21,538 nucleotides of DNA from IMG/VR virus record IMGVR_UViG_2740892229_000015; one strand, given 5' to 3'. The notes below the pieces were generated by a model. The model was not told the DNA's origin and did not search any database. It saw only the letters and a program-made list of their open reading frames with translations. The stretch comes from a virus. Lineage: Duplodnaviria > Heunggongvirae > Uroviricota > Caudoviricetes. Shown piece by piece: positions 120-19,004 of the stretch. A program made the translations under genes and the position numbers. The first letter of the stretch is position 1. Each line of letters opens with the position of its first letter.

Positions 120-272
120 GAAAATAAAGGGATAACGATGATAGTTTGAGAAAAACAGAAATAACACTTTTGTGGCAAAGCNNNNNNNNNNGGCCACGCC
201 ATGCGCAGCCGGAAATAAAGGGATAACGATGATAGTTTGAGAAAAACAGAAACAACACTTTTGTGGCAAAGC
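100..272. repeat. Two near-identical copies of an ~80-bp sequence (100-181 and 192-272) flanking an N run; most likely overlapping contig ends or repeat variants
   Basis: Direct comparison: ggcc(g/a)cgccatgcgcagcc(g)gaaataaagggataacgatgatagtttgagaaaaacagaaa(t/c)aacacttttgtggcaaagc. Confidence 0.6.
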
Positions 273-458
273 ATGGTGCCGGGTGCCTCCCGGTGAATTC
301 AGTATCAGCACCTGAATCCGCGATTATCCCATATACCTGGTTGCTGATCGCCCCTCCGCACAGGGGGATTCACCATGCAGAAGTGTTTTTAATAAACAGC
401 AAACAAAAAAATCAANNNNNNNNNNAGTAGTATTTTTAATAAACAGTAAACAAAAAAA

Positions 459-1223: not shown

Positions 1224-1300
1224 TGGCGCGTTGTAGTGGAGTCGAACCACTGACCGATTGCTTAGAAGGCAATTGCTCTGTCCGGCTGAGCTAACAACGC
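1224..1300 (-). tRNA. tRNA-Arg, anticodon TCT (77 nt, CCA encoded), phage-type rare-codon tRNA
   Basis: Hand-folded cloverleaf: acceptor GCGTTGT/ACAACGC, anticodon loop CTTCTAA, T-loop TTCGACT, 3' GCCA. Confidence 0.8.
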
Positions 1301-1313
1301 AGAATTCCGATAA

Positions 1314-1332
1314 TGGACCGCCATCGGGGACC
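1314..1332 (-). other. About 19-nt remnant of the 3' end of tRNA-Arg(TCG) (tggaccgccatcggggac), diverging from the intact gene afterwards; a similar remnant lies at 1413-1430 in the next piece
   Basis: Identical to the 3' end of the intact tRNA at 1525-1543, then unrelated sequence. Confidence 0.55.
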
Positions 1333-1495
1333 CGCCCCATAAGCGCTAACTTAAGGGTTGTGGTATTACGCCTGATATGATTTAACGTGCCGATNNNNNN
1401 NNNNACCGATAATGGACCGCCATCGGGGACCCGCCCCCGCACCAACAACCCTGTTATGGTGTCGTCTGCTCTTCCTGATAAGCTANNNNNNNNNN

Positions 1496-1511
1496 ACTGA
1501 GCTAACAACGC
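1496..1511 (-). other. 5' fragment of a tRNA-Arg(TCT) copy truncated at the contig start
   Basis: actgagctaacaacgc matches 1285-1300 of the intact tRNA-Arg(TCT). Confidence 0.6.
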
Positions 1512-1524
1512 ATGATGCTGATAA

Positions 1525-1601
1525 TGGACCGCCATCGGGGACTTGAACCCCGCGCAGCCAGCTTCGAAGGCTGGCGCTCTGTCCCGATGAGCTAATGGCG
1601 G
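1525..1601 (-). tRNA. tRNA-Arg, anticodon TCG as folded by hand (77 nt, CCA encoded)
   Basis: Acceptor CCGCCAT/ATGGCGG, anticodon stem CCAGC/GCTGG, loop CTTCGAA, T-loop TTCAAGT; anticodon call depends on my manual fold. Confidence 0.65.
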
Positions 1602-1610
1602 TATGTGATA

Positions 1611-1686
1611 TGGTGGCCCTTGCTGGATTTGAACCAGCGACCTGGCGATTATGAGTCGCTCGCTCTCACCACTGAGCTAAAGGGCC
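1611..1686 (-). tRNA. tRNA with anticodon CAT (76 nt); sequence and context fit the phage ileZ-type tRNA-Ile2 (lysidine) rather than tRNA-Met
   Basis: Cloverleaf: acceptor GGCCCTT/AAGGGCC, anticodon loop CTCATAA, T-loop TTCAAAT, 3' ACCA; sits downstream of Q like the ileZ-argN-argO cluster of Stx-type phages. Confidence 0.75.
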
Positions 1687-2380: not shown

Positions 2381-2667
2381 AAATAACCGTCCTTTCTCCA
2401 GATCTCTTGTGTGCGAAAAACACCTTCTGCATGCATCAGGCGCAATTCTTCTTTGGTGTAATCGCTGGTTTTTACTCTCCCGTCGATTAAATCGTGGCAT
2501 GAGTTACAGGCAATCGCTGCCTGCATATCGTGTGGCTTTATCGCTGTTCCGCACGTTCCCGCCAGCCTGTAATGCGCCAGCACAGAGGTTTCGGGATTGT
2601 GATTGCAGTAGCCAGGGATTCTGATCTGGCATATCTGGCCTTTAGCCGCTTTACGTAAATTCACCAT
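2377..2667 (-). CDS. YbcO-like (DUF1364) Cys-rich lambdoid nin-region protein, putative nuclease, 96 aa
   Basis: ORF track; cysteine pattern CQIRIPGYC...ACNSCHD recalled as YbcO-like; start overlaps the upstream stop (TAATG). Confidence 0.65.
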   Translation of the reverse strand: MVNLRKAAKGQICQIRIPGYCNHNPETSVLAHYRLAGTCGTAIKPHDMQAAIACNSCHDLIDGRVKTSDYTKEELRLMHAEGVFRTQEIWRKDGYL

Positions 2668-3266
2668 TACGCAAACTCCAGTAGTTGTGCGGCCACATTT
2701 TCAACTTCCTCCTGAGAGGAGAATTTACGGAACAGAATCCAGTTCCACAGCACATTCAGTACAGATTTATAAACCTGCTGAAACTCGACTTCGTCCATAT
2801 TCGCAAAAGCGATGGATTTTGCCCGACGCCCACGGCTACCGTCCGGATAAATATGCTCGGTGTAAAATCCGGCCTGAATGGTTACCCACTCGCGGAAAGC
2901 CTCAAACGACTTTAGCAACGCCGTATCCCGGGTTCTACGAGTCGCAACGGTGTTAAGGTATTGCTCTGCGGCATCACTCAGGGCTGGCGTGTGTTCCCGA
3001 CCAACTGATTCGCACAGGTAATCAACGAAACCAGACAGCAGTTCTCGTTCGCGAGGCGTGATCGCCCCACCGACCGGAGTCCAGTAATCGAATCCCAGTT
3101 GCAGGAGTTTGAAAAAACGCTTGTGGAATGCGTAGTTACGCACACGCTTAAAATCTGCGTGTATCCACTCACCTATTTTGATTTGATGCAGAAAATCGCA
3201 ACTCTCCGGCGTCGCCGGGAGAAGTAAACCAGAAGAAGTTTGTTTGACCAGTTGTATATGCGCCAT
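2667..3266 (-). CDS. Conserved lambdoid nin-region protein of unknown function (199 aa; possibly DUF1367-like)
   Basis: ORF track; tightly coupled to the YbcO-like gene; family assignment is from memory only. Confidence 0.5.
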   Translation of the reverse strand: MAHIQLVKQTSSGLLLPATPESCDFLHQIKIGEWIHADFKRVRNYAFHKRFFKLLQLGFDYWTPVGGAITPRERELLSGFVDYLCESVGREHTPALSDAAEQYLNTVATRRTRDTALLKSFEAFREWVTIQAGFYTEHIYPDGSRGRRAKSIAFANMDEVEFQQVYKSVLNVLWNWILFRKFSSQEEVENVAAQLLEFA

Positions 3267-3685
3267 TTCTCAATCTCTCGATGGCGCAGTGCAGCAGATG
3301 CCAGTTGTTCAAGCTAGCACGCAAATTGTAAACCAGAATGCCAGGAAAAAACAAAACCCGCCGAAGCTGGTTGTGTGCGGTTGCGTTGAAGTCTCCTAGC
3401 CAAAGAGTAGCGGTGACCACTCCCCGCCGATAATCTTAGTTGTTTAATTTCGTAAGCTAACTAGGCTAAAAGCTCTCTGTTGTCTGCCTGTTGTACAATT
3501 AACAAAATGAACAACGAACTAGATATACCAACGCCAGAATGGTGCAACAAATCCCAAACAACACAGCAATGCAACAATAACATATGTTATTTTCCTCTCA
3601 CGGGATTCAGTCCTGAATTCTCATAAAGCTAATCTTTTTTTAAAAACATACTGTTAGATCACATGCACTTTCTTTCTTAACATCG

Positions 3686-3713
3686 TTGACTTCGCATGCG
3701 AAGCGTTTAAAAT
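3686..3713 (+). promoter_or_regulatory. Candidate sigma70 promoter TTGACT-N16-TAAAAT with a perfect 14-bp palindrome cttcgcatgcgaag (3690-3703) in the spacer; about 50 bp upstream of the GHKL ATPase gene
   Basis: Hexamers and palindrome read directly. Confidence 0.4.
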
Positions 3714-3765
3714 CAACAATTTGCACTTAAGGTATTTATTTTCCCAAACACATAGAGAGTAAATT

Positions 3766-5157
3766 ATGACTGAGAACACGACTCCAACAGCAGACTTTAG
3801 TCCTAGTAAAAGATTTTTTGTAAGTATGCTAACTCGAGATATCGACTTAAACGATGCCATACTTGATCTGCTTGATAACTGCGTCGATGGGGCTTTACGT
3901 ACAATAAAAGACACAAAAAAAACTTCAAAACCATATGAAGGATTTTATGCGAAACTTACGATTAATAAAGATGTCTTTATTATAGAAGACAATTGCGGAG
4001 GTATCCCTAAAAGCTTCCGAGAATATGCTTTTAAAATGGGACGACCCCATCAAAAAGAAGAAGAAAATGAAGGCACCGTTGGCGTCTATGGTATTGGTAT
4101 GAAAAGAGCCATTTTTAAAATGGGTAGAGATTGCTCAATACAATCGAATAATCCCGATGGCGCATTCACTGTAGATATAACACCTGATTGGATCGATGGT
4201 GATGGTTGGAAAATACCGATGCACGAGAGTGACTATGATAACAAAAATCCAACAGGCACAACTATAGAGATAAAAAAACTCCATTCTAATGTGGCACAAA
4301 AATTTAATGAGAGCACATATCTTACTGATCTCTTTTTACAGATAAAACACTCATTGTCATTTATTATTCAAAAAGGATTTAAAATAGAATTAAATGGAGT
4401 TGTTGTTGAACATAATCCGATTAACATCATAACTGATCATTCTAAAATAGAACCATACATATATAAAGCTAAAATAGACGATGTTGATATCGATTTAGTT
4501 GTTGGCTTCTATAAAAATTTAGAAGATGACAATGATGATGTTTTAGAAAAAAGGAGTTCTGATGATGCTGGATGGACTGTCATTTGCAATGACCGCGTTG
4601 TTCTATATTGTGATAAGACACATCTCACAGGTTGGGGCTTTGCTAATGTACCAAGGTTTCATACCCAATTTATAGCAATTTCTGGGGTTGTTCGCTTTAC
4701 CAGTAAAAACCCAGAAAAATTACCAATAACAACAACGAAACGAGGTGTCGATCTTAGTTCTACATTGTACAATGATGTACGAAATAAAATGATTGAAGGG
4801 ATGATGCATTTTATTCGATTCACCAATCAGTGGAAAGGTGAGCATCTTGAAGAAGGGAAAAAATTACTTAAGTCAGCTCAGTCACATGAAGCTCAATCTT
4901 TATTTGAAATTACCCCACAATCAACTCCAGAAGATAAAAAAAATAACTGGTCCAACCCTAATAGAAACAAAAATGAGTGGCGATATACACCTAAGCTGCC
5001 TACCCCAGTAAAAAAAAGCTCTACTGTACGAATAATCTTCACCAGAGAGAAAGAAGATGTTAAAATTTTATCTAAATATTTCTTTGGACATGAAGATGCT
5101 AGCGCTTCTGATGTGGGGATGCAATGCTTTGATACGGTGATTGAAGAGGTGAAGTGA
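3766..5157 (+). CDS. GHKL-superfamily ATPase, MutL/MORC-like (463 aa)
   Basis: ORF track; Bergerat-fold motifs in order: N-box DLLDNCVDGA, G1 IEDNCGGI, G2 GVYGIGMKRA; GAGAG RBS; AT-rich codon usage unlike the flanking prophage genes. Confidence 0.85.
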   Translation: MTENTTPTADFSPSKRFFVSMLTRDIDLNDAILDLLDNCVDGALRTIKDTKKTSKPYEGFYAKLTINKDVFIIEDNCGGIPKSFREYAFKMGRPHQKEEENEGTVGVYGIGMKRAIFKMGRDCSIQSNNPDGAFTVDITPDWIDGDGWKIPMHESDYDNKNPTGTTIEIKKLHSNVAQKFNESTYLTDLFLQIKHSLSFIIQKGFKIELNGVVVEHNPINIITDHSKIEPYIYKAKIDDVDIDLVVGFYKNLEDDNDDVLEKRSSDDAGWTVICNDRVVLYCDKTHLTGWGFANVPRFHTQFIAISGVVRFTSKNPEKLPITTTKRGVDLSSTLYNDVRNKMIEGMMHFIRFTNQWKGEHLEEGKKLLKSAQSHEAQSLFEITPQSTPEDKKNNWSNPNRNKNEWRYTPKLPTPVKKSSTVRIIFTREKEDVKILSKYFFGHEDASASDVGMQCFDTVIEEVK

Positions 5158-6146
5158 TGTCTGGACAATACATTCCCTATCACTTAAGGCATAATAAGTC
5201 TATTGATAGAGAGATTTTTCTCGAAAGCCTAAACCTCTTAAGCAAAAGACTAAATATTCAAGAATATACATATATAGGTTTTGGTGGTCCGATGCTTGAA
5301 GATTTTAGAATCATGCATAATCGTATCGCTCTTTCTGATATGATTTCTCTCGAAGAACAAGAGTCTACTCACATCAGACAAAAATATAATTTGCCTTATA
5401 ATTGTATTGATTGTAAGCTAATATCAGCTCATGACTTTATTCTTGATTATAGTTTTTCTAAACCATCAATAACATGGTTAGACTATGCCTCCCCGAAAAA
5501 AATACAAACGGATCTAGATGATATACACTTACTAAGTACTAAAGTAAGCTCTTTTGATATTTTGAAGGTCACCTTCCCCATAAATCCTAGTTCTTATTAC
5601 CAACGTAGAGTTGGAGAAAGTTTAGATATTTTTAAAGAAGCTTTTATTAATTCATTAAAATCATTGCTTGGGAAAAAGTATCTTGATTTTAATCTTCAGA
5701 TATCAAATGCAGATCTTTCAGATCGTAAGATTAAAGCTCTTTTAATACGAATTATTACAAACGCTTTTAGATCAGCAATAGAACGTGGTCTTTCAGGACG
5801 TAAGGATAAGATTCAGTATTACCCATTATCCTTAAATCAATATAATGATGGCAGTCATACCATGTTGACAATATCAGGTTTTTTCTCCTCAGAACAAGAA
5901 TATATAGAGTTATCTAAGGCATGCGACCTTTCTAACTGGCAATTTTATTCAACAAATTGGGAAGACGTGCAAGAAATAGCAATACCAACACTAACAATTA
6001 AAGAAAAGATAAATTTAGATAGTAAACTGCCTGATAAAGAAGCATATCAGGCAGCCGCTGAAGAGTTCTCTTTAAACGAAAATGAACGGGATAACTATTA
6101 TAAATACTATAGGTTATACCCTAACTTCCAAAGAATTATGGTTTAA
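5157..6146 (+). CDS. Protein of unknown function (329 aa), translationally coupled to the GHKL ATPase; possible effector of the cassette
   Basis: ORF track 5154..6146; ATG at 5157 overlaps the ATPase TGA (TGATG); GAGGTG RBS; no motif I can recognise. Confidence 0.75.
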   Translation: MSGQYIPYHLRHNKSIDREIFLESLNLLSKRLNIQEYTYIGFGGPMLEDFRIMHNRIALSDMISLEEQESTHIRQKYNLPYNCIDCKLISAHDFILDYSFSKPSITWLDYASPKKIQTDLDDIHLLSTKVSSFDILKVTFPINPSSYYQRRVGESLDIFKEAFINSLKSLLGKKYLDFNLQISNADLSDRKIKALLIRIITNAFRSAIERGLSGRKDKIQYYPLSLNQYNDGSHTMLTISGFFSSEQEYIELSKACDLSNWQFYSTNWEDVQEIAIPTLTIKEKINLDSKLPDKEAYQAAAEEFSLNENERDNYYKYYRLYPNFQRIMV

Positions 6147-7265
6147 ATATTCGGGCTGTACTCTTTTATTTAATAAATTGTACAGCCCCTTTAATATATA
6201 TTCAGCAACTATTGGTGACACGCTATTTCCTATTTGTCTGAAACTATGCCATTTAGTTACATGAAAGCGAAACCAATCAGGGAAGCCTTGTAATCTAGCA
6301 GCTTCTCTTGGTGTAATCACTCTTGGATGATAAGGGTGGATCGGCCTGACGGCTTGAAAGCTTCCTTTATCTCTAGCGGTTCCCGCCCTTAAAGTCGGGC
6401 AAAAACCATTTGGATCTAATCTTGTAGATCTTGAAATTTTATCAGTTTCCCCAAAAGATAAGGAAGCATAACGCTCTTGGACGATTTTGCTATGTAATGT
6501 TCCGGTACATCCAGATATGATATTATTTTTTAACTTAGCGATCGATTCTGTATCACCAACATTCCGAGGGATCTGCCCCCATAATTTTTCATAAAATCCC
6601 CCTTTTCGATCTTTTTTAATTGTTCGCCAACTCTCAGAGTCTGATTGCCAATTGGCATCGATAATATCTGGTAATCCATACAAAGCATCTTTTACAGTAA
6701 CCGGATCAATCATTTTAGGCATAAATACTTCATCTGAAATATCAAGCTTCAATGATTTTTTTACACCGATAAAAAAATATCTAGTTCGAATAGTTGGAGC
6801 ACCATAATCAGATGCTTTTACCTTGATGGGATCAAGAATATCATAATCACCGCTAACCAAATTAAATGCTTTATTTCTAATGCCAGAATATTTCTCTTGC
6901 ATAATACCTGGAACATTTTCTGCCAAAAAGAATAATGGCTGTAATTCTGATACTAAACGGTAGAAATGCATGTAAAGCTGATTCCTGCTATCATCAGGAT
7001 TCCCCTTGCCTATTGAACTAAATCCTTGGCACGGAGGACCGCCAATAATACCATCTATGGGCATATCGTTTTTAAAAAAACCCTTAATTATTTCTGCATT
7101 TAGTAAAGAAACATCTTCTTGGACGTGCAAACTTCTTGGAAAATTAATTGCGTGAGTATTAATAGCATGTTGATCAATTTCAACTGCCATTTTAACATCA
7201 AATCCAGCACGTGCAGCACCAAGACTTAGACCTCCAACGCCAGAAAACAAATCTATTACATTCAT
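6114..7265 (-). CDS. DNA (cytosine-5)-methyltransferase (383 aa)
   Basis: ORF track; canonical C5-MTase motifs: I FSGVGG, IV GPPCQGFS (catalytic Cys), VI ENV, X QIGNSVSP; 3' end overlaps the convergent 329-aa gene by 33 bp. Confidence 0.9.
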   Translation of the reverse strand: MNVIDLFSGVGGLSLGAARAGFDVKMAVEIDQHAINTHAINFPRSLHVQEDVSLLNAEIIKGFFKNDMPIDGIIGGPPCQGFSSIGKGNPDDSRNQLYMHFYRLVSELQPLFFLAENVPGIMQEKYSGIRNKAFNLVSGDYDILDPIKVKASDYGAPTIRTRYFFIGVKKSLKLDISDEVFMPKMIDPVTVKDALYGLPDIIDANWQSDSESWRTIKKDRKGGFYEKLWGQIPRNVGDTESIAKLKNNIISGCTGTLHSKIVQERYASLSFGETDKISRSTRLDPNGFCPTLRAGTARDKGSFQAVRPIHPYHPRVITPREAARLQGFPDWFRFHVTKWHSFRQIGNSVSPIVAEYILKGLYNLLNKRVQPEYLNHNSLEVRV

Positions 7266-7297
7266 ATAGTTGCAACGTCTCTTATTAGTTTCTATGT

Positions 7298-7306
7298 ATT
7301 ATAACA
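7298..7306 (-). promoter_or_regulatory. Candidate extended -10 promoter (TGTTATAAT on the minus strand) about 30 nt upstream of the methyltransferase ATG
   Basis: Read from the reverse complement of 7298-7306. Confidence 0.35.
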
Positions 7307-7517
7307 CAACTGTTCTTGATGTTTTAACCCCATAAGATAACCTCATAAAGGCTATCCCTTGAAAATACCGGATCGCATAAATTTAATCTTTCAAAACTAC
7401 TTGTCTATTAATCGAGCAATTTAAGGTTGTTTTAGTCATGTCGATACCGACATAGTTAACTAAACCCATTTCATCGTCCAACAAATGGGGGTAATACACT
7501 TTGATTTATAGTCGGGT

Positions 7518-7622
7518 GGGTTTTTCTCTATCTGCCTTTGGTGTTCATGCCCAAGGCAGATAGCCTCAAGCACCCGCAGCAATTCTACTTAACTATCCTT
7601 TTCCCGCAAATCGTTTTTATCC
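7518..7622. repeat. Copy 1 of a ~105-bp conserved element (imperfect palindrome atctgcctttgg...ccaaggcagat plus shared core agcctcaagcacccgcagcaattctacttaact); copy 2 at 8438-8543
   Basis: Direct comparison of the two loci. Confidence 0.6.
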
Positions 7623-7700
7623 CCAGCGGCAAATCGAATACACAACCAGCGCCACCGCCATCGCAATTCCTACCGTTGTGAATGCTTCAGGCCAGGTCAT
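7617..7700 (-). CDS. Small hydrophobic peptide, 27 aa (MTWPEAFTTVGIAMAVALVVYSICRWG)
   Basis: Hand translation; ATG overlaps the TGA of the upstream ORF (ATGA); paralogue of the peptide at 8713-8796. Confidence 0.4.
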   Translation of the reverse strand: MTWPEAFTTVGIAMAVALVVYSICRWG

Positions 7701-8120: not shown

Positions 8121-8171
8121 NNNNNNNNNNTTCATCAGAGGTGGCGAGGGATTTCTCCCCCGCCGGGGCTC

Positions 8172-8327
8172 TTACTCCTCAGGTTCGTAAGCTGTGAAGA
8201 CAGCGACCTCCGTCTGGCCGGTTCGGACTCGTACCTCGCAGAGGTCTTTCCTCGTTACCAGTGCCGTCACTATGACGGTTAAACAGATGACGATCAGGGC
8301 GATTAACATCGCCTTTTGCTGCTTCAT
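8172..8327 (-). CDS. hok: Hok/Gef-family type I toxin (51 aa, MKQQKAMLIALIVICLTVIVTALVTRKDLCEVRVRTGQTEVAVFTAYEPEE), HokD/RelF-like
   Basis: ORF track 8172..8384; internal ATG with AGGAGAAG RBS; single TM helix plus conserved C-terminal Cys, matching the Hok family as I recall it. Confidence 0.8.
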   Translation of the reverse strand: MKQQKAMLIALIVICLTVIVTALVTRKDLCEVRVRTGQTEVAVFTAYEPEE

Positions 8328-8437
8328 AGCCTGCTTCTCCTTGCCTTTCGGCACGTAAGAGGCTAACCTACGTTTGTGAAGCATAGATTGGGCCTCAGAT
8401 TAATGTTAAGCGTCTTGCAGGACGCGTAATGTTAACT

Positions 8438-8543
8438 GGGGCTTTTCTCTGTCTGCCTTACGGTGGCATGCCCGAGGCAGACAGCCTCAAGCACCCGCAG
8501 CAATTCTACTTAACTCTCGCTTTACCGCAAACCGTTTTTACCC
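8438..8543. repeat. Copy 2 of the conserved ~105-bp element (palindrome ctgtctgcc...ggcagacag), here about 110 bp upstream of hok on the hok-coding strand
   Basis: Direct comparison with 7518-7622. Confidence 0.6.
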
Positions 8544-10783: not shown

Positions 10784-10793
10784 NNNNNNNNNN

Positions 10794-12680: not shown

Positions 12681-12953
12681 CGCACCACCTCCTCAAAATT
12701 CCCCTGATAAAACGCCAGTACGCGCTGCATAACTTCGCTCTTCCGGCACTCGAGACAGATTATGTTCAGACGCCTGTCGTAGCGACGTATTTCTCCGTCA
12801 GGTAATGACCAGATAAGGTCCGGATCAACCGCAGATGGTTTCTTCAGCTTTGCCCTTGAGAGCTTTTTACGGGTATTTTGCCAGTCCTTACGCGCCTGTT
12901 CAGACGGGAATAACCCGTAACCAGAGTTGTATACATCGCCACTGGCAACCAGC
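12677..12953 (-). CDS. C-terminal fragment of the paralogue of the 10507-10783 gene, truncated by the N run
   Basis: Near-identical DNA to 10507-10783 with scattered substitutions. Confidence 0.5.
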
Positions 12954-12963
12954 NNNNNNNNNN

Positions 12964-13670
12964 GAACCGCCCCGGAAATCCTGGAGACTAAACTCCCTGA
13001 GAAAGAGGTAAACAGGATGACTAAAAATACTCGTTTTTCCCCCGAAGTCCGTCAGCGGGCGATTCGTATGGTTCTGGAAAGTCAGGATGAATATGACTCA
13101 CAGTGGGCGGCAATTTGTTCCATTGCCCCAAAGATTGGCTGTACGCCGGAGACTCTGCGTGTCTGGGTTCGCCAGCATGAGCGGGATACCGGGAGTGGTG
13201 ATGGTGGACTCACCACCGCTGAACGTCAGCGTCTGAAAGAGCTGGAACGTGAAAATCGTGAACTGCGCCGCAGTAACGATATCCTTCGCCAGGCTTCCGC
13301 TTATTTTGCGAAGGCGGAGTTCGACCGCCTCTGGAAAAAATAATGCCTCTGCTGGATAAGCTGCGTGAGCAGTACGGGGTCGGACCGGTATGCAGTGAAC
13401 TGCATATTGCCCCGTCAACGTATTACCACTGTCAGCAACAGCGACATCATCCTGATAAACGCAGTGCCCGTGCGCAGCGCGATGACTGGCTGAAGAGAGA
13501 GATACAGCGCGTATACGATGAAAATCATCAGGTATACGGTGTGCGTAAAGTCTGGCGCCAGTTGTTACGCGAAGGTATCAGGGTGGCCAGATGTACAGTG
13601 GCGCGCCTCATGGCGGTTATGGGACTTGCCGGTGCTCTCCGGGGTAAAAAGGTCCGTACTACCGTCAGCC
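12964..13670 (+). mobile_element. IS3-family insertion sequence, left part only (IRL, orfA, first ~110 codons of orfB); homology to the other copy ends at ~13670
   Basis: Terminal repeat gaaccgccccgg at the contig start; orfA/orfB in -1 frame arrangement; transposase resembles IS629/IS3411-type as I recall. Confidence 0.8.
13017..13343 (+). CDS. IS3-family transposase OrfA (HTH, 108 aa)
   Basis: ORF track (its N-terminal residues spanning the N run are artefactual); GAGG RBS; leucine-zipper-like C-terminus. Confidence 0.9.
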
Positions 13671-13690
13671 GATTTACGGGCCGTAAGTAA
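13343..13690 (+). pseudogene. IS3-family transposase OrfB, truncated: diverges from the intact copy after ...KKVRTTVSR and stops 5 codons later
   Basis: Comparison with 13972-14854. Confidence 0.7.
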
Positions 13691-13971
13691 CGAAGTTGGA
13701 TGCAAATGTCAGATCGTGTGCGCCTGTTATGGCTCGGCTGGTAAGAGAGCCTTATAGGCGCATTTGAAAAAACTCCAGCTATACCGGAAGATATTTATTA
13801 TTAACAGGAGAGGTTTGCTTTTCTGTGTAGGTTTAGATTTTGTGTTTGCAGGGTAAACAAAACTGATTAACTCGTCATTTCGGTAACTGAAATAGTTTGC
13901 TGTTGGATTTGCCCCTATATTTCCAGACATCTGTTATCACTTAACCCATTACAAGCCCGCTNNNNNNNNNN

Positions 13972-14854
13972 ACTGCTGGATAAGCTGCGTGAGCAGTACG
14001 GGGTCGGACCGGTATGCAGCGAACTGCATATTGCCCCGTCAACGTATTACCATTGTCAGCAACAGCGACATCATCCGGATAAACGCAGTGCCCGTGCGCA
14101 GCACGATGACTGGCTGAAGAAAGAGATACAGCGCGTATACGATGAAAATCACCAGGTATACGGTGTGCGTAAAGTCTGGCGTCAGTTGTTACGGGAAGGT
14201 ATCAGAGTGGCCAGATGCACTGTGGCACGTCTCATGGCAGTTATGGGACTTGCCGGTGTTCTCCGGGGTAAAAAGGTCCGCACTACCGTCAGCCGGAAAG
14301 CCGTTGCCGCATGCGACCGCGTAAACCGTCAGTTCGTGGCAGAACGTCCAGACCAGTTGTGGGTGGCTGATTTTACCTGGGTAAGCACATGGCAGGGCTT
14401 CGTTTATGTGGCGTTCATCATTGATGTGTTCGCCGGATACATCGTGGGATGGCAGGTCTCATCATCCATGGAAACAACATTCGTGCTGGATGCACTGGAG
14501 CAGGCGTTGTGGGCCCGTCGGCCGTCCGGCACAATCCATCACAGTGATAAAGGTTCTCAGTATGTATCGCTGGCCTACACGCAGCGGCTTAAGGAAGCCG
14601 GATTACTGGCATCAACAGGGAGTACTGGCGACTCGTATGACAACGCGATGGCTGAGAGCATCAATGGTCTTTACAAAGCGGAGGTAATACACCGTAAGAG
14701 CTGGAAAAACCGGACAGAAGTGGAACTGGCCACACTAACGTGGGTGGACTGGTATAACAATCGACGATTGCTGGAAAGGCTGGGCCATATTCCTCCGGCA
14801 GAAGCAGAAAAAGCTTATTATGCTTCCATCGGAAATAATGATCTGGCAGCCTGA
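13972..14854 (+). CDS. IS3-family transposase OrfB (DDE integrase core), 5' end lost in the N run
   Basis: ORF track 14165..14854 plus open frame back to the contig start. Confidence 0.85.
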
Positions 14855-16172: not shown

Positions 16173-16182
16173 NNNNNNNNNN

Positions 16183-18994: not shown

Positions 18995-19004
18995 NNNNNN
19001 NNNN

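Follow-up and report, generated by a model that had tools for sequence, protein, structure and literature searches.

Prokaryotic MORC and paraMORC ATPases have been predicted to act in restriction-modification (RM) together with cytosine methylases, Vsr, helicases and nucleases (Iyer, Abhiman and Aravind 2008, PMC2292703; here and below, in the accessible part of that article). Here we describe a three-gene cassette that compares with those systems. It is carried by the IMG/VR virus record IMGVR_UViG_2740892229_000015 (Caudoviricetes), a stretch of 21,538 nucleotides that was analyzed as a whole and is referred to as the window. The cassette encodes a MORC-like GHKL ATPase, a protein of the family PF20553 (Methyltransf_35) and a C5-cytosine DNA methyltransferase (C5 methylase); we call the three genes the trio. 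Our favored reading is that the trio is a self-contained module of prophage cargo, in which 5-methylcytosine (5mC) would be the self-mark and the ATPase and PF20553 protein would form an antagonistic pair, with a nuclease-free, RM-like role in defense or addiction. We give this reading a probability of about 0.5. The genes and the block that holds them are as follows.

3766-5157, + strand: MORC-like GHKL ATPase, 463 residues, with a GHKL domain, an S5-type transducer and a helical C-terminal domain of about 110 residues
5157-6146, + strand: PF20553 (Methyltransf_35) protein, 329 residues, with a class-I S-adenosylmethionine (SAM) methyltransferase fold, translationally coupled to the ATPase
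6114-7265, - strand: C5-cytosine DNA methyltransferase, 383 residues, convergent with the ATPase-PF20553 operon and on the same strand as the prophage early genes
3316-7517: AT-rich accessory block (cargo insert) in the rightward early operon of a Rac/lambdoid-type prophage, delimited by GC (guanine plus cytosine) content and homology breaks

Relation to described systems

The module fits the general kind of MORC-linked RM described in the accessible part of PMC2292703. As in the systems reported there, a GHKL plus S5-type ATPase occurs near cytosine methylases and Vsr, and the distribution is patchy and laterally mobile. Those systems include superfamily-II helicases and restriction-fold, HNH and other predicted nucleases, whereas the trio has neither a helicase nor a nuclease and has an obligate methyltransferase-fold partner, which the accessible text does not mention for its ATPases.

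The trio shares with Type II RM systems that have a C5 methylase and Vsr (the Dcm-Vsr type) an active-looking methylase, a convergent or methylase-first layout, a Vsr gene in many loci, mobility and an AT-rich, foreign composition. Unlike them it has no restriction endonuclease, the ATPase and a methyltransferase-fold protein taking the place of the R gene, and its methylase has diverged far less between phyla than Type II RM methylases usually do. In BREX and in Type I and Type III RM a methyltransferase subunit belongs to the restricting complex. These systems show that a methyltransferase-fold protein can have a part in restriction, and BREX (see PMC11341690) is an example of exclusion without obvious DNA cleavage. 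One methylase marks self and also serves the complex in BREX and in Types I and III, whereas the trio has two distinct methyltransferase-fold proteins.

PD-Lambda-5 (PMC9519451) and the VcSduA/paraMORC3 GHKL-nuclease fusions (PMC12137116) resemble the trio in being prophage-borne, compact, and methylase-linked or GHKL-containing. Unlike PD-Lambda-5 and GHKL-Shedu, the ATPase and partner of the window have no PADLOC hit and no PD-(D/E)xK or DUF4263 nuclease domain; the methylase drew only generic methylase-type hits in PADLOC. The MZA system was considered and rejected, as NF041932 (MzaB) scored 12.4 bits against a cut-off of 850, PADLOC gave no Mza match and no such neighbors are present. NCBIfam likewise has no match to a named system for the ATPase or its partner, in line with an initial annotation of the window, made by a model from the letters and reading frames, which could match the cassette to no named system. 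Neither PF20553 by name nor the trio appears in any paper that we found within the open-access literature.

The ATPase is structurally related to the eukaryotic methylation-linked silencers MORC and SMCHD1, and a silencing or compaction role for it is conjectural. Unlike these proteins it has no CW, chromo-like or hinge domain, and it is encoded in a bacterial operon with an obligate methyltransferase-fold partner.

Linkage of the three genes across phyla

A scan of one genome per species with a PF20553 alignment as the query gave 80 loci, 79 of which have a full PF20553 match. They span Cyanobacteria, Proteobacteria, Firmicutes, Verrucomicrobia, Latescibacteria, Chloroflexi, Acidobacteria, Thermotogae and others. 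Neighbors were counted by profile searches of the open reading frames (ORFs) at these loci, up to a distance of 8 kb for the methylase. In 77 of the 79 loci the gene immediately before PF20553 encodes the ATPase, the other two being a frameshifted copy and a contig edge, and the stop and start codons of the two genes overlap by 4 nucleotides in 46. A C5 methylase is found within 8 kb in 66 of the 79, in these arrangements:

Methylase upstream on the same strand (methylase-ATPase-PF20553): 32 of 66
Methylase convergent downstream (the layout of the window): 26 of 66
Methylase downstream on the same strand: 7 of 66
Methylase divergent: 1 of 66

Methylase-first and convergent layouts are typical of RM systems. 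In 32 non-phage loci the trio is a single co-directional operon whose genes overlap or are closely spaced. Homologue loci in Ralstonia, Yersinia and Methylomonas agree with the overall picture from these counts, by precomputed Pfam labels.

The linkage is also present in viral contigs of IMG/VR, where a methylase adjoins the PF20553 locus in 49 of 49 cases, and it is reciprocal. When a metagenome scan was made with a methylase alignment, methylases of one clade, here named the 3G7U clade after a solved structure, led to a neighboring ATPase in all eight informative contigs; five of these hold the whole trio and the remaining three break off inside the ATPase gene or shortly past it. The ATPase-PF20553 pair was in none of the roughly 65 contigs that have other C5 methylases. 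On this evidence the 3G7U clade appears to be dedicated to the trio module. The conserved linkage across phyla bears out the initial annotation, which had taken the three genes of the window as one module, and supports the view that the trio is one functional unit.

Among the 80 loci no recurrent fourth gene, such as a nuclease or a helicase, was found by Pfam searches of 142 flanking ORFs, and the largest neighbor cluster comprises 6 loci. The flanking ORFs are mixed, including housekeeping genes, integrases, TniQ, TrwC and scattered restriction-type and defense genes.

The same counts bear on whether the methylase and the pair are two separate travelers, namely an orphan anti-restriction C5 methylase beside an independent pair of abortive-infection or toxin-like character, whose trigger would be unrelated to 5mC (in a variant, the pair might guard the methylase against phage inhibitors). 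Pairs that have no methylase beside them, which occur in cyanobacteria and at a few further loci, would agree with this, as would the strands in the window, where the methylase is on the early-gene strand like orphan phage methylases and the pair is opposite with its own promoter candidate. We nevertheless find it improbable, since the linkage is reciprocal and clade-specific (8/8 against 0 of about 65), is complete in viral contigs (49/49) and takes the form of a single co-directional operon in 32 non-phage loci.

At a Rhodoferax locus (L021, 6616-13709) two ATPase-PF20553 pairs lie around a single methylase, the second pair being far more divergent (E 7e-81, 8e-33).

The ATPase and the PF20553 protein

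The ATPase matches HATPase_c_3 of Pfam (E 2.9e-9; 37.5 bits against a gathering cut-off of 25). Its Bergerat motifs do not vary among 32 homologues, which share 44-48% identity across phyla: the N box D34xxxN38xxD41, G1 (D75-N-C-G-G) and G2 (G106xYGIG). A TTTK motif is invariant too, and the position four before N38, where Glu is usual, is an invariant Asp. The GHKL domain is followed by an S5-fold transducer with a conserved lysine, and fold alignments were to ATPase modules of MORC, MutL and topoisomerase II only. The C-terminal stretch of about 110 residues is helical and has no match. A C-terminal nuclease domain was considered for the ATPase and rejected, as none appeared in profile or fold comparisons. 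As to paraMORC features, there is no C-terminal nuclease and no obvious ExxxH at conserved positions, the comparison with paraMORC1-5 being by description only. More than 5,400 clusters at 90% identity, among up to 8,000 candidates considered, match the ATPase, and PHROGs places both it and the PF20553 protein in families of unknown function.

The partner is a full-length member of PF20553 (E 2e-89; 300.4 bits against a cut-off of 27), with residues 1-328 aligned to profile positions 1-308 of 309. Members of this family always stand alone, are 320-345 residues long and form about 2,100 clusters at 50% identity. Pfam labels the family 'putative O-methyltransferase'. Fold comparison gave a class-I SAM-methyltransferase whose nearest folds are nucleic-acid base methyltransferases, namely N- and C-methylating RNA enzymes, and the 'O-' of the label is therefore unverified. 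In 34 homologues the glycine-rich loop GFGGPxLEDF, E66 at the end of strand 2 and W107-x-D109-Y after strand 4 are invariant, a pattern that fits SAM binding and catalysis, so that these residues may have those roles. The protein has no sequence match in the PDB, and a BFVD fold search returned only generic methyltransferase folds with low TM-scores. Kinship with RlmJ, prompted by an N-terminal Y-H...K motif, was rejected (hhalign probability 0.15% against verified RlmJ).

These results change the initial annotation in two respects, as it had recognized no motif in the 329-residue protein and had looked to it for a nuclease. The protein has a class-I SAM-methyltransferase fold, no nuclease family was detected in it or in the ATPase by Pfam, PADLOC and NCBIfam searches, and no nuclease gene is consistently linked to the pair. 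The other two identities stand: the GHKL ATPase through its HATPase_c_3 match and invariant N box, G1 and G2, and the C5 methylase through its PF00145 match and invariant motifs, given below.

Vsr is the usual companion of C5 methylases, and it is present in 26 of the 79 loci, often within the operon. This invites an explanation by 5mC damage control, in which the ATPase and partner would aid very-short-patch repair of the T:G mismatches that arise from deaminated 5mC. We judge this very improbable; in its favor are the position of Vsr in or next to the operon, the GHKL plus transducer make-up of the ATPase, which is of the MutL/MORC type, and the established stimulation of Vsr by MutL in E. 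coli (cited in the accessible part of PMC2292703).

The C5 methylase

The methylase matches DNA_methylase PF00145 with E 2.6e-61 and TIGR00675 with E 9.6e-46, and it is nearly identical to PDB 3G7U, the structure of which has been solved. The catalytic motifs are intact, and an alignment of the clade shows no variation in PPCQ or ENV. Most trio-associated methylases (47 of 67) belong to the 3G7U clade, where they are 47-64% identical to the enzyme of the window; the other 20 are in other sub-clades. Within the 3G7U clade, conserved blocks extend into the region before motif IX, beside the target-recognition domain, which suggests that these enzymes may have a single conserved target motif. Motif counts in the 4 kb of AT-rich cassette DNA were uninformative as to the target. 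The methylase is the most conserved of the three proteins (median identities 0.46, 0.43 and 0.32). RM systems usually diversify in specificity.

Distribution, cargo slots and decay

The cassette is 100% identical in Escherichia coli O157:H7 PA20, 86-24 and EDL933 and in O111 and O103 strains, and in O157:H7 it lies within prophage CP-933R/Sp10. The products are named by PGAP as 'ATP-binding protein', 'O-methyltransferase' and 'DNA cytosine methyltransferase'. Out of 5,426 complete E. coli genomes, 173 carry the ATPase and PF20553 genes and 172 carry the methylase, all with at least 99% identity, and the cassette is absent from all 50,697 records of deposited phage genomes. Its flanks are found in about 2,600-2,800 E. 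coli genomes (the DUF1367 gene in about 2,600). Thus, the cassette is a recently spread accessory insert and not part of the ordinary phage gene set. This agrees with the horizontal acquisition proposed by the initial annotation, and it is not what would be seen if the block were present in all related prophages as ordinary genes.

The slot upstream of DUF1367 is a variable cargo site in Rac-type prophages in which the DUF1367 gene is 93-99.7% identical (loci L095-L100). Its contents in other strains are:

Strain 631: IetAS defense system (iteA/iteS)
LD91-1: DUF262 protein, TPR protein and insertion sequence (IS) elements
M11: Doc toxin and HokD
M21170: KilA-N and DUF1971
O169:H41: two opposite-strand hypothetical genes

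The trio also occurs in 22 P2-like prophages, with the portal gene directly on one side of it and replication gene A on the other, a position that we take to be the site of P2 old/tin. Vassallo et al. (2022, PMC9519451) used the P2 portal gene as the landmark for the P2 defense hotspot, taking the genes that surround it.

A few loci have decayed. The ATPase is frameshifted in one (L027) and the PF20553 gene in another (L228), and the methylase is intact in both. This asymmetry, with the effector broken and the methylase kept, is the pattern of RM systems. One of the 173 E. coli genomes, that of O157:H7 strain F6294 (L093; locus 5392-5895), is the only one with an incomplete trio; here a single deletion of about 2 kb takes the methylase and the C-terminal two-thirds of the PF20553 gene and leaves the ATPase intact.

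A parallel architecture was found beside the methylase. Eight genome loci that carry the pair (L024, L025, L028, L029, L033, L035, L041 and L045) also encode a longer GHKL protein of about 560-610 residues (in L041, 559 residues and 3.2 kb from the methylase), and a metagenome contig (L108) has the longer protein beside a methylase without the ATPase-PF20553 pair. PADLOC PD-Lambda-5_A matches the C-terminal 200 or so residues of this protein in the three cases checked (L024, L035 and L108). PD-Lambda-5 is a compact prophage system of the 'RM+Abi' type that has been validated (Vassallo et al. 2022, PMC9519451). Since the longer protein has its GHKL module fused to an effector domain, PF20553 occupies the effector-domain position in the trio. 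The longer protein itself may be a separate GHKL-effector RM system or the fourth component of a larger variant.

A different account of the trio has to be weighed at this point, in which the three proteins cooperate in modification and install a composite or second DNA mark (for example, methylation at or near 5mC with ATP-driven loading) that protects or regulates without restriction. The co-evolution of the three proteins as a unit with the methylase the most conserved, the methylase clade dedicated to the module, and the SAM-binding signature of PF20553 with its nearest folds among nucleic-acid base methyltransferases are all consistent with it, as is the failure to find a nuclease in the module. 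However, a module that only modifies DNA would offer no evident advantage to the free-living bacteria of a dozen phyla that carry it in chromosomal islands. Convergent and methylase-first layouts, the cargo slot and the decay pattern fit an antagonistic pair better, and at least three C5-methylase sub-clades accompany the pair, some pairs having none. We consider cooperative modification unlikely.

Composition and setting of the cassette

The basic description in the initial annotation, with three ORFs, TGATG coupling, a 33-bp convergent overlap and an AT-rich block, was reproduced by our ORF and sequence checks. The ATPase stop and the PF20553 start overlap as TGATG (an alternative GTG start for PF20553 is at 5154), and the convergent 3' ends of the PF20553 and methylase genes overlap by 33 bp (6114-6146). 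GC content is 35.2% in 3316-7517 against 48.0% in the remaining window; it drops to 0.30-0.39 across about 3500-7500 from about 0.50 on either side. Homology to prophages that lack the cassette ends at about 3315 (query 1-649 of window 2667-3420) and restarts at about 7518 (query 4119-4301 of window 3400-7700). No convincing flanking direct repeats were found at the block as an insertion signature. Further features of the block are:

3686-3713, + strand: sigma-70-like promoter candidate of the ATPase-PF20553 operon, TTGACT-16-TAAAAT, 10/12 match, 53 bp upstream of the ATG
7298-7327, - strand: sigma-70-like promoter candidate of the methylase with an extended -10, TTAAAA-18-TG-TATAAT, 10/12 match, 33 bp upstream of the ATG at 7265
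6153-6188: inverted repeat (I15) with 14-bp arms, 86% complementary, 8-nucleotide loop, just past the PF20553 stop and within the methylase 3' end

The number of sigma-70-like sites in the cassette region is no higher than the shuffled expectation, and the promoter of the ATPase operon is for that reason a candidate only. The inverted repeat is possibly an attenuator or terminator of the convergent transcripts.

To the left the cassette is flanked by DUF1367, YbcO and a DUF1133/Q-type antiterminator gene, and to the right by hok/sok, a DUF551 gene, an IS3 element, a lambda-P-like replication gene and YdaT. This gene order puts the block within the rightward early operon, which runs on the minus strand, with the replication genes on one side and the nin/Q genes on the other. 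The initial annotation had put it between nin-region and early-left-type genes; the former side holds, and the latter does not fit the genes found there.

The hok/sok type I toxin-antitoxin locus right of the cassette (8172-8496, - strand) consists of a Hok-like ORF at 8172-8384 and an Rfam sok RNA at 8322-8496 (117.5 bits); HokD is carried near the same region in related prophages too. The IS3-family element (12927-14040, + strand) interrupts the prophage and is missing from the otherwise matching PA20 prophage. It has a full Rfam ALIL frameshift pseudoknot (13298-13414) that spans the point where ORFs 12927-13343 and 13343-13690 meet, and a second, partial ALIL match lies at 13974-14038. A match to the STnc100 small RNA is at 235-407 (- strand), and three tRNA genes at 1227-1686 (- strand), downstream of the Q-like antiterminator, resemble the clustered tRNA genes found in related prophages. 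The 500 bp that separate DUF1367 from the ATPase gene contain a short AT-rich ORF of about 40 codons (3508-3627, + strand; MNNELDIPTPEWCNK...), which RefSeq leaves without annotation and which is probably no real gene. The window contains ten runs of masked bases (N) of exactly 10 each, none of them within the cassette: 182-191, 416-425, 1395-1404, 1486-1495, 8121-8130, 10784-10793, 12954-12963, 13962-13971, 16173-16182 and 18995-19004. The run at 8121-8130 disrupts nearby ORF calls.

Possible mode of action

The observations cover gene content, folds, catalytic motifs, linkage, mobility and position in cargo slots; the functional steps set out here are inferred. Under the favored reading, that of a nuclease-free RM-like module, the trio would follow a self/non-self logic. 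The C5 methylase would mark a fixed short motif in host and prophage DNA, expressed from its own promoter candidate; lying on the early-operon strand, it would also be transcribed in lytic growth, so that progeny DNA would be marked. The ATPase and the PF20553 protein would form an ATP-driven complex that acts on incoming unmarked DNA, with an anti-phage phenotype as the expected outcome. As the module has no nuclease, the effector step would be clamping or compaction, or harmful methyl transfer. In the first case the dimerizing ATPase would clamp or compact unmarked DNA in a MORC-like manner; in the second, methyl transfer by the PF20553 subunit would block replication or expression. A linked Vsr might add nicking in some lineages. 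Any particular effector chemistry is doubtful in our view. The restricting activity that the initial annotation ascribed to the ATPase and partner is suggested by gene linkage and location and would, if true, involve unconventional chemistry.

Several points weigh against this reading. Thirteen of the 79 loci lack a C5 methylase within 8 kb. Of these, six or more (L013, L015, L016, L018, L019 and L047) have at least about 5 kb of flank on both sides, and therefore the ATPase-PF20553 pair can occur where no methylase is linked. Cyanobacteria account for six of the 13 (L013 and L015-L019), and at least three of these pairs (L013, L015 and L019) sit between NDH/antiporter-type genes; in such genomes a methylase could possibly act from elsewhere. 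The methylase is unusually conserved, with 50-64% identity across phyla that extends to blocks beside the target-recognition domain, and this fits a dedicated enzymatic partner as well as it does a self-marking enzyme. The evidence from decay consists of three events (L027, L228 and F6294). Without a nuclease the restricting chemistry would be unprecedented, and what we propose for it is a guess. Finally, restriction, toxicity or an anti-phage phenotype of the trio is unreported in the open-access literature.

Implications

A broader version of this reading is that the trio is a widespread nuclease-free immune or addiction system, in which a MORC-like ATPase and a methyltransferase disable DNA without 5mC, by clamping or compaction or by 'restriction by methylation', and which would be a prokaryotic counterpart, possibly an ancestor, of eukaryotic silencing by MORC/SMCHD1 and DNA methylation. 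We put this forward tentatively and consider it unlikely. The trio is common. It occurs in E. coli O157:H7, a much-studied pathogen, and it occupies prophage cargo slots where relatives have known defense systems. If it restricts foreign DNA, it would be a new defense system with a MORC-like ATPase and a methyltransferase as the effector instead of a nuclease. It would then also offer an experimentally tractable bacterial model for MORC-type ATPases that read or act on DNA methylation, given that a structure of the methylase is available, the strains are widely used and the cassette measures only 4.2 kb.

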